A stretch of DNA of 31,002 bases from Planctomycetota bacterium (GCA_027001995.1 JALTLO010000188.1:1-31002); one strand, 5' to 3'. Counted from the first letter of the stretch, positions 1 to 11,353 are shown. Notes: generated by a model from the letters alone, not told the origin. A program made the numbers and translations.

Positions 1-240
1 ATCGCGATTGATGGGATGCACTGCGAGGCTTGCAAAGTTTCCGTCAAACGTGAGCTATTGAAAGTAGAAGGCATCGCAAGCGTCGTTGTCGACTATGATT
101 CAGGAGTTGCGACAGTTGGTGTGACTTCTGGAGACATGCCAAGTGACGAAGACCTTGTCGCCGCGATCGAACGGGCGGGGTACGAGACCAAGAAAATTCT
201 GCATCCTGATCCACAGGATAGCAATTTGTCTGAGAAGTGA
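1..240 (+). CDS. HMA-domain (MerP/CopZ-like) protein, 5'-truncated by window edge
   Basis: Frame open from base 1: IAIDGMHCEACKVSVKRELLKVEGIASVVVD...LVAAIERAGY, giving the GMxCxxC metal-binding motif and C-terminal GY of HMA domains; stop TGA 238-240. Upstream domains not visible. Confidence 0.88.
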   Translation: MAIDGMHCEACKVSVKRELLKVEGIASVVVDYDSGVATVGVTSGDMPSDEDLVAAIERAGYETKKILHPDPQDSNLSEK

Positions 241-265
241 GACATTGGATCTCAAGGAGTCAAAC

Positions 266-1063
266 ATGAAATTAGATGTAGCCCTGCTGCCAATGCTGTT
301 GGCAGTCGCGTTTTCGTTCTCGCTGATTAGTTGCGGGGAGAGTGGTCCGAGTGCACAAGACAATACGCCCGATTCAACAGAGAGCAGGACCGATGAACTG
401 CAAAGATCGAATGATCCTTCCTCTGCGAAGGCCGAAATAACTTTTCATGTCGACGGTTTGATGAAAACAGAATCTGGCGCGACATGACAGGCCTGACCGA
501 ATAAGGTCGACGAGTCCCTGGAAGGGATTCACAAATCAATTGAAATTTCTTGGAACTACGATACGGACCAGATCACGATTCTATTTGATTTTGATGCTGT
601 CCAATCGTCTGCCCTCAAGAAGCGAATCGAAGATCTCGGCTACAAGGTTGCATTAGCCGAGAAAACTGAAGTTGTCGCATCTTCAACAACGAATGTCTCA
701 CTCGCTGAGTCCATTCCAGAGGAGTTGAAAGCCGCTCTACAACGTTCCCAAGATGGTAGTCTCATTGTCGTCGATTTCTGGGCGACCTGGTGCGTTCCTT
801 GTGTCAAACTCAAGAAAACGACGCTTGTTGATCCGACCGTGAAGCAACTATTGCAAGAGGTCGAGTTGGTGTTTGTCGATCTTGATAAGCATCCAGAGCT
901 CGGCAAACTGTGGGGCGTCCATACAGTGCCAGACGTGCTATTCATCAATGCCGATGGCCGCGTCTTTGATCGTCTCAAGAAGTATGAGGATGCGGCACCT
1001 TTCACCAACCGTTTGAAGGCCGCAATCAATGCCGCCAAATCCGAAGACGCGAAAAGAAGATGA
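266..1063 (+). CDS. Putative selenoprotein: lipoprotein signal + HMA domain with UxxU (2 Sec) + thioredoxin domain (WCVPC), 265 aa
   Basis: RBS AAGGAG 254-259, ATG 266, signal peptide ending in lipobox LISC. In-frame TGA at 485-487 and 494-496 (T-U-Q-A-U-P), then the frame continues without stops as NKVDESLEGIHKSIEISWNYDTDQITILFDFDAVQSSALKKRIEDLGYKV (HMA fold pattern) into the Trx ORF 725..1063 (VVDFWATWCVPC, TVP). Confidence 0.85.
497..530 (+). promoter_or_regulatory. Candidate bacterial SECIS element
   Basis: GAGTCCCT (512-519) / GGA loop / AGGGATTC (523-530): 8-bp stem with one G-U and a G-starting apical loop, 23 nt after the second UGA and 32 nt after the first. Confidence 0.65.
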
Positions 1064-1158
1064 TTTTCAGATGGAAGGAAAGCGAAAATGGTCTTCGGTG
1101 GACAGGCCAAATCTGCACAAGGACGAAGGATACAGGAGATTTCTGCCGGTGCTCTGCC

Positions 1159-11279: not shown

Positions 11280-11353
11280 TGGGCGTACCTGGATTCGAAC
11301 CGGGGACCTCTACGATGTCAACGTAGCGCTCTAACCAACTGAGCTATACGCCC
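11280..11353 (-). tRNA. tRNA-Val(GAC)
   Basis: GGGCGTATAGCTCAGTTGGTTAGAGCGCTACGTTGACATCGTAGAGGTCCCCGGTTCGAATCCAGGTACGCCCA: full cloverleaf, anticodon GAC, CCA not encoded. Confidence 0.97.

Follow-up and report, generated by a model that had tools for sequence, protein, structure and literature searches.

We analyzed a 31,002-nucleotide stretch of DNA from a Planctomycetota bacterium (GCA_027001995.1 JALTLO010000188.1:1-31002), referred to here as the window, which is contig C188 of an assembly of 5.22 Mb in 204 contigs, with 92% completeness. Positions 266-1063 are one intact, real gene that has been mis-called by gene callers. The gene contains two in-frame TGA codons, codons 74 and 77, and the conclusion that both encode selenocysteine (Sec; U in sequences) is well supported by the comparisons with relatives described below. 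The predicted product is a lipoprotein that joins a heavy-metal-associated (HMA) domain, with a putative Sec-x-x-Sec pair at its metal site, to a thioredoxin-fold domain. The following features lie at the locus:

253..258, plus strand: Shine-Dalgarno-like AAGGAG (sequence; the stretch is conserved in the 78% identical ortholog of genome G007)
266..1063, plus strand: whole gene of the putative selenoprotein (frame reading, homolog comparison)
266..334, plus strand: predicted lipoprotein signal peptide with lipobox L-I-S-C, Cys23 codon at 332-334 (motif only)
428..658, plus strand: HMA domain, residues 55-131 (Pfam, AlphaFold2 model, sequence matches to solved structures)
485..487, plus strand: UGA 1, putative Sec74 (TGA in 28 of 28 homologs)
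494..496, plus strand: UGA 2, putative Sec77 (TGA in 27 of 28 homologs, TGC in one)
495..508, plus strand: small hairpin GACCG-AAUA-AGGUC with UGA 2 within its 5' arm (alignment pairing, single-sequence folds)
512..530, plus strand: selenocysteine insertion sequence (SECIS)-like hairpin GAGUCCC-UGGAA-GGGAUUC (folding, covariation, RNAalifold)
719..1057, plus strand: thioredoxin-fold domain, residues 152-264 (PF00085, PF13098, PF13899; Foldseek)
788-802, plus strand: active site W-C176-V-P-C179 (sequence)
1..240, plus strand: 3' end of the upstream gene, an HMA domain with GMHCEAC (CxxC) (Pfam HMA, 56.1 bits)

Reading frame and conservation of the TGA pair

The frame at 266-1063, as read from the sequence, is a single frame of 265 codons plus a stop TGA at 1061-1063, and its only interruptions are the TGA codons at 485-487 (codon 74) and 494-496 (codon 77). 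They stand in the context ACA-TGA-CAG-GCC-TGA-CCG, or T-U-Q-A-U-P. The ATG start at 266 follows the Shine-Dalgarno-like AAGGAG by 7 nucleotides. A preliminary description of this DNA had reported two open reading frames (ORFs) that share one frame and are separated by the TGA pair, and a table-11 ORF caller indeed returns 143..487 and 725..1063 in that arrangement. Codons 78-153 form the run of 76 stop-free codons, ending in IEDLGYKV, that the same description had read as coding, and the earliest start codon past the second TGA is codon 154 (TTG at 725). TGA is otherwise the commonest stop, and it terminates 9 of the 14 ORFs of at least 300 amino acids in the window as well as the gene itself. 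The genetic code is therefore not globally recoded, as had been supposed from the start, and we rejected global recoding of TGA as an explanation. The bases were checked in a second assembly of the likely source run, which shows 0 differences over window positions 200-1100 and is not independent data; in that assembly the contig of a paralog (described below) differs at 489, 490, 492 and 499 and leaves the TGA codons unchanged.

We searched six-frame translations of 9 genomes of the taxonomic family, 23 of the order and 401 sampled from the phylum. At the family level we found five further copies with 42-78% identity, each with two TGA codons. One is a paralog in the same genome (contig C74:11902-12669; L019:1498-2292) with 58% identity, which reads T-U-L-G-U-P and has the same hairpin. 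The order-level search added one copy, in another family. In the phylum search, 36 of the 70 matches listed span both domains and are found in 34 genomes; the HMA-thioredoxin fusion is retained in all 36, and every one carries two to four in-frame TGA codons. The other 34 matches have no TGA and all begin at query residue 135 or later, and for this reason we regard them as plain thioredoxins. A profile search of contigs with a six-sequence alignment gave 80 loci that matched the generic thioredoxin motif only (query residue 100 onward) and no family member.

Twenty-eight of the 36 two-domain loci were read in sequence, the remaining eight having no locus. U-x-x-U-P is found in 27 of the 28, and the exception, in genome G341, keeps the first TGA and has TGC at the second, giving U-S-A-C-P (U-x-x-C-P). 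Because 27 of 28 loci have both TGA codons at matching columns, the pair is not a product of chance. In a 26-sequence alignment with identity down to 23%, the lipobox cysteine, both Sec columns, the proline that follows them and both thioredoxin cysteine columns are invariant. Relative to the 78% identical ortholog in G007, the ratio of nonsynonymous to synonymous substitution (dN/dS) is 0.17 for codons 1-73, 0.27 for codons 78-153 and 0.07 for codons 154-258, so that the stretch at 497-724 is under purifying selection like the parts on either side. The two sites align to both cysteines of the GMTCxxC motif of solved HMA domains, which is the relationship of UGA with Cys or Sec in homologs that is used to recognize Sec codons. 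The preliminary description had judged that two independent nonsense mutations at exactly these codons were improbable, and had looked for relatives with TGA-xx-TGA and conservation on both sides; the pair and its flanks are conserved down to 23% identity, and a double nonsense mutation is accordingly unlikely.

Selenocysteine machinery and RNA structure of the locus

Profile and tRNA searches of the assembly found selA, selB, selC and selD, the machinery on which Sec decoding depends and whose presence in the host had been left for a search to settle. The selA gene lies at C148:21981-23075 with selD directly behind it, and the tRNA-Sec gene at C148:24316-24413 completes a single cluster (C148:21981-24413). 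This tRNA is the only one with anticodon tca among 43. The selB gene is on contig C17 (334 bits vs a cut-off of 242). Since selD carries one in-frame TGA, the selenophosphate synthetase is probably itself a selenoprotein. Of the 34 carrier genomes, 32 have SelA, and the remaining two are 84% and 80% complete. SelA is present in 290 of the 401 phylum genomes as background, so this co-occurrence agrees with Sec decoding and is mildly discriminating, related genomes not being independent.

The hairpin at 512-530 has a predicted energy of -9.6 kcal/mol, a UGGAA loop and a stem of 7-8 base pairs. It begins 15 nucleotides past UGA 2, and its loop starts 22 nucleotides from UGA 2 and 31 nucleotides from UGA 1. 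According to the legend of Fig. 2 in PMC13188914, a bacterial SECIS element has a loop of 3-9 nucleotides with a G at position 1 or 2, a stem of 4-16 base pairs, 16-37 nucleotides between UGA and loop, and a minimum free energy of -7.5 or lower. The hairpin agrees with all of these values. In a 28-sequence DNA alignment, 87% of the cells of this helix are paired, and sliding its 3' arm by one column lowers pairing to 55% or 45%. Compensatory changes are found in three of its seven pairs, with 35:51 and 37:49 each changed in seven sequences; the seven U:A pairs at 37:49 all come from one clade and may be a single event. RNAalifold recovers the same helix, and 26 of the 28 homologs have a SECIS-like hairpin at -7.5 kcal/mol or lower.

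The small hairpin at 495-508 is paired in 86% of cells, its pair 21:26 being GC in 12 sequences, CG in six and UA in one, and it also appears in single-sequence fold predictions. None of 500 shuffles reached the pairing or the covariation observed for the two-helix structure. The 81-nucleotide stretch as a whole folds unremarkably (z -0.98), so the hairpin signal stems from the alignment and not from the single sequence. Synonymous divergence from the G007 ortholog is 0.34 in codons 78-153 (window 497-724) vs approximately 1.0-1.1 on either side. This low value suggests that RNA-level constraint may extend beyond the hairpin in 497-724.

Domain architecture, known relatives and family variants

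Bacterial lipoproteins are recognized by a signal peptide and a lipobox of the pattern [LVI][ASTVI][GAS]C. The N-terminus of the frame shows both by motif alone, with a hydrophobic stretch ahead of a cysteine that is invariant in 26 of 26 aligned homologs. The product of 266-1063 is thus predicted from motif to be exported and lipid-anchored. Residues 24-54 are predicted to be disordered. When U is replaced by C, residues 70-127 score 32.7 bits with Pfam HMA (PF00403), whose cut-off is 24.8. An AlphaFold2 model built from the 26-sequence alignment (mean predicted local distance difference test score, pLDDT, 86.5; predicted template modelling score 0.75) gives the HMA part, at pLDDT >95, a beta-alpha-beta-beta-alpha-beta fold with strands at 55-63, 93-97, 102-108 and 127-130 and helices at 76-86 and 114-123. 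In sequence matches to solved structures of the CopA, ATP7B, CopZ and MerP kind, S-G-A-T-U aligns to x-G-M-T-C, and a family-specific insert of seven residues, LMKTESG, precedes G-A-T-U-Q-A-U-P. Thus Pfam, solved HMA domains and the predicted fold agree on the domain that had been proposed from the reading frame, and the proposal that Sec replaces both metal-site cysteines is supported by the alignment of the sites to the GMTCxxC pair.

The C-terminal part matches Thioredoxin PF00085 at residues 157-243 (E 1.5e-11, 44.6 bits vs a cut-off of 23.5), with the WCVPC motif at 175-179, so that the lipid-anchored protein with a CxxC thioredoxin of its own, as first described, is what we find predicted here. 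In a Foldseek search of PDB, its best match is DsbD gamma (1vrs_D, E 7.7e-9, TM 0.71-0.76 on the target; 2fwe), followed by thioredoxins. It resembles DsbD gamma (1vrs, 2fwe) and proteins of the TlpA/ResA type in having a periplasmic reducing thioredoxin fold with a WCxPC-type motif. Unlike DsbD, it has neither a membrane nor an alpha domain, it scores 47.6 bits vs 330 with NF001419, and its thioredoxin is fused to a Sec-HMA domain.

We asked which known families the protein approaches. A UxxU metal-binding selenoprotein is already on record as NCBIfam NF041115 and is listed in tables of PMC9312934 and PMC13188914; the preliminary description was therefore right that Sec-containing HMA proteins are not unprecedented. 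As in NF041115, both metal cysteines of an HMA-type domain are Sec (UxxU) and the two UGA codons are 9 nucleotides apart. NF041115 is a single domain of 74 positions, whereas the protein studied here has 265 residues, a lipoprotein signal, the seven-residue insert and the fused thioredoxin. Its score of 23.8 bits vs a cut-off of 95 places it outside NF041115. A genome-wide search with this model gave no match at the stretch of the TGA pair, and its two hits are Cys-type HMA stretches (38.6 and 23 bits).

MerP carries the motif C-x-x-C-P. The protein resembles it in having a predicted exported HMA domain with a motif of the x-x-P type (here U-x-x-U-P), apparently near a MerT-family protein and a MerR regulator; unlike MerP (TIGR02052, 18.6 bits vs a cut-off of 92.55), it has Sec for Cys, is predicted to be lipid-anchored and is fused to thioredoxin. 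Overall, it falls below the cut-offs for MerP, MerTP, CopZ, DsbD and all selenoprotein-specific NCBIfam models.

A word-indexed search of 5.8 billion proteins returned only nine relatives, all C-terminal fragments of 150-176 residues, one of them annotated as 'thiol:disulfide interchange protein'. When 1.84 billion representatives were searched with a profile, 265 hits reached E<=1e-30. Among the best 150, approximately 57 are fragments that start just past the second TGA, one (P0046) has W at both sites with TGA read as Trp, and another starts M-A-C-P (UxxC form). No CxxC two-domain form was found among the 36 two-domain relatives or the best 150 of the 265 hits. A full-length relative, P0045, has G-I-I-L-G-E-G-P for G-x-T-U-x-x-U-P, with neither Cys nor Sec at the site and an HMA-like segment before it. 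Our literature searches did not find an HMA-thioredoxin selenoprotein fusion. Among planctomycete selenoproteins, 12 of the 14 supplement files of PMC4807772 contain only thiol-disulfide isomerase-like candidates with Cys homologs, and no HMA-thioredoxin fusion is described in the accessible parts of PMC1976440 and bioRxiv 10.1101/2022.07.06.499078. Our data indicate a new architecture and family within the known UxxU HMA selenoproteins, and no existing model covers the fusion.

The number of putative Sec residues varies within the family. In 12 of the 28 loci, Sec is also found in the thioredoxin motif (G-x-x-U-x-x-C), with a conserved hairpin of its own approximately 17 nucleotides past that UGA. 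Eleven of these (L040, L041, L043-L047, L049-L051 and L054) would have three Sec per protein, while L042, with U-x-x-C at the HMA site, would have two. L046 (G325) and L054 (G376) have a fourth TGA in frame, in I-P-D-T-U-I-L-G shortly after the conserved thioredoxin I-P-D; L043 and L049 have Arg at that position. This TGA is possibly a fourth Sec or a truncation. G131 (L038:1429-2568) has a second HMA domain past the thioredoxin with G-M-T-U-P-D-G-U (U-x-x-x-U), and Pfam matches two HMA stretches. PDZ or Trx7/PDZ genes are neighbors in three loci (L013:2347-2910; L030:2404-3186; L041:671-1192 and 2238-2741), and in G251 (L033:751-2232) the frame of the thioredoxin runs on into such a protein and holds two TGA codons in a row (E-T-U-U-P-S). 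These arrangements hint at a link to the Trx7/PDZ selenoprotein family.

Gene neighborhood and proposed function

At the start of the window, 1..240 probably encodes the last domain of a zf_CopZ-MerT-HMA membrane protein, the 5' part of its gene being on contig C156. There, the profile NF045683 (MerT/CopZ fusion-like heavy metal transport selenoprotein) matches with positions 13-115 at C156:15-323(-), and it matches with positions 167-227 at window 4-189. The C156 ORF at 875..3(-), 291 residues with zf_CopZ and MerT, is cut by the end of the contig, and C156 919-1350(-) holds a MerR gene. Because NF045683 is matched in two parts, across C156 and the window start, a likely operon is merR, zf_CopZ-MerT-HMA(CxxC) and Sec-HMA-thioredoxin, split by an assembly gap. 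The upstream protein is like NF045683 in combining MerT with a C-terminal HMA domain; unlike it, the protein scores 52.5 and 36.6 bits vs 375, lacks an in-frame TGA, has the Cys form and adds zf_CopZ. Unlike mer operons, the probable arrangement has a MerT with N-terminal zf_CopZ and C-terminal HMA, in a genome in which no MerA was found. Elsewhere in the window, an ordinary tRNA gene lies at 11280-11353 (-) (Rfam RF00005, 67.4 bits).

Across the family, a zf_CopZ/MerT/HMA gene is found within 1.5 kb at eight of the 28 loci and a MerR gene at four, 11 loci having at least one of the two. In G046 (L055:1489-3318) one open frame of 610 residues reads zf_CopZ-MerT-HMA(CxxC)-HMA(UxxU)-thioredoxin. 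This in-frame Rosetta-stone fusion argues that the MerT-type protein and the Sec-HMA-thioredoxin protein work together. The same frame has a weak BFD-like [2Fe-2S] match. DsbD-type membrane electron carriers are encoded elsewhere in the genome of the window.

Selenolates are ionised at neutral pH and bind ions of the Hg(II) class tighter than thiolates do. We propose that the protein is a soft-metal carrier, a reading to which we give a probability of roughly 0.55 and in which the metal, its transfer and the job of the thioredoxin are inferred. The SelA/SelB/SelD/tRNA-Sec system would decode UGA 74 and UGA 77 as Sec, directed by the hairpin at 512-530 and possibly assisted by the small hairpin at 495-508. 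The mature protein would consist of a flexible tether (24-54), a Sec-x-x-Sec HMA domain and a DsbD-gamma-like thioredoxin (WCVPC). In the periplasm, the two selenolates might capture a soft metal of the Hg(II)/Cu(I)/Ag(I) class, and the protein might cooperate, as MerP does with MerT, with the MerR-controlled zf_CopZ-MerT-HMA(CxxC) membrane protein that is apparently encoded immediately before it. The thioredoxin domain, perhaps fed by a DsbD/CcdA-type carrier, would re-reduce the Sec pair after its oxidation to diselenide or selenylsulfide in the oxidising periplasm. We reasoned that the thioredoxin might keep the Sec pair reduced because it is strictly retained and its first Cys is replaced by Sec in 12 of the 28 loci. 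The preliminary description had offered a soft-metal trap or a diselenide relay; the gene context favors the metal reading, and both remain proposals here.

Several points weigh against the carrier. Hg-selenolate bonds are much stronger than Hg-thiolate bonds, which would make metal transfer to Cys sites uphill, and a CxxC thioredoxin is a thermodynamically poor reductant of a diselenide. By sequence, the HMA part is closest to Cu-ATPase domains (E 3e-13 to 3e-16) and not to MerP (E 1e-3 and 0.016). The join of C156 to C188 is our own inference, and 17 of the 28 loci have neither MerT nor MerR within 1.5 kb. The NF045683 profile gave no MerT match in four genomes of the same taxonomic family, and its one hit there, in G001, is confined to the HMA part of the profile and lies in an open frame of 763 amino acids. 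The 78% identical ortholog in G007 lies behind only a weak MerR-like ORF (24.3 bits, below cut-off), and the C74 paralog adjoins an SBF-family transporter and an AcrB-type pump, not MerT. In the 92% complete genome, no MerA scores over the cut-off (best 312 bits vs 454) and the best MerA-like ORF lacks the C-terminal Cys pair; without MerA, a classical import-and-reduce mercury pathway is not supported. As to decoding, no Rfam SECIS family matches over the window at gathering score or on 440-620 at E<=10, and a single hairpin would have to serve two UGA codons 9 nucleotides apart. More tentatively, and with rather less confidence than the carrier itself, we suggest that the family might form an obligately selenium-dependent envelope module in which the metal site is always Sec, the partner is of the MerT type, and the selenolate route is distinct from the thiol route of MerP, MerT and MerA.

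A redox relay is an unlikely yet serious competitor. Here the Sec-x-x-Sec diselenide would take electrons from the thioredoxin, as DsbD-alpha does from DsbD-gamma, and pass them to periplasmic oxidised proteins, metal-thiol complexes or selenium/tellurium oxyanions. The thioredoxin is nearest to DsbD-gamma by fold and to DsbD by sequence (47.6 bits), and the Sec in the thioredoxin motif of 12 of 28 relatives is typical of redox selenoproteins. PDZ or Trx7/PDZ proteins that neighbor or are fused at four of 28 loci, the lack of a detected MerA in the genome, and the full-length P0045 without Cys or Sec at the site also fit this explanation. Set against it are the HMA domain, which is a metal-binding fold with U-x-x-U-P placed exactly on the metal-binding GMTCxxC, the MerT, MerR and CxxC-HMA neighbors at 11 of 28 loci, and the in-frame MerT-HMA fusion in G046.

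Less probable again is a terminal sink, in which a toxic soft metal is held irreversibly at the Sec pair on the membrane surface and never handed over to MerT. The very high affinity of selenolate for Hg(II) would be expected to favor such holding, and the genome without a detected MerA, the 17 of 28 loci with neither MerT nor MerR nearby and the second copy in the same genome, away from MerT, are in line with it. A sink that binds stoichiometrically through a costly residue could hold little metal, and it leaves the strictly conserved thioredoxin and the G046 transporter fusion unaccounted for.

We consider it very improbable that near-cognate decoding or a suppressor tRNA places another residue, such as Trp, Cys or Gly, at the TGA codons. 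The database entry P0046, translated by its source with W at both sites, suggests this, whereas the only UCA-anticodon tRNA is tRNA-Sec, TGA is the stop of the gene itself and of 9 of the 14 long ORFs in the window, a covarying hairpin of SECIS type lies downstream of the site, the aligned residue is Cys, with which Sec usually alternates, and SelA is found in 32 of 34 carrier genomes. Finally, a broken gene or two genes, with the TGA codons as true stops and a 73-residue peptide and/or a thioredoxin fragment as product, would agree with the frame split by gene callers and with public entries that are only C-terminal fragments of 150-176 residues, and is hardly credible given TGA columns shared by relatives of as little as 23% identity, flanks that are both under purifying selection, a first start codon past TGA 2 only at codon 154, SECIS covariation and identical bases in the second assembly of the likely source reads; we rejected a pseudogene because the TGA columns are conserved, both flanks are under purifying selection and the SECIS covaries.

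These data correct an annotation with considerable reach, since the family is common, being found in 34 of the 401 sampled phylum genomes and in dozens of 50%-identity metagenome clusters, and its public proteins are only truncated 'thiol:disulfide interchange' fragments. The locus also offers a compact natural test bed for SelB/SECIS decoding of two close UGA codons with one hairpin. Two Sec forming the metal site of an exported protein would be a rare case, and the family departs from the pattern that selenoproteins as a rule have Cys homologs, no Cys version having been seen. A metal site built from Sec would tie soft-metal handling to selenium supply. If the metal role is true, these proteins would be a selenium-based alternative to MerP in environmental bacteria without MerA. 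If the selenium-dependent module is true as well, mercury-like metals would be captured and transported through the envelope by selenolates together with a MerT-type transporter, in lineages some of which add a third Sec, a possible fourth UGA past I-P-D, or a second Sec-HMA domain.

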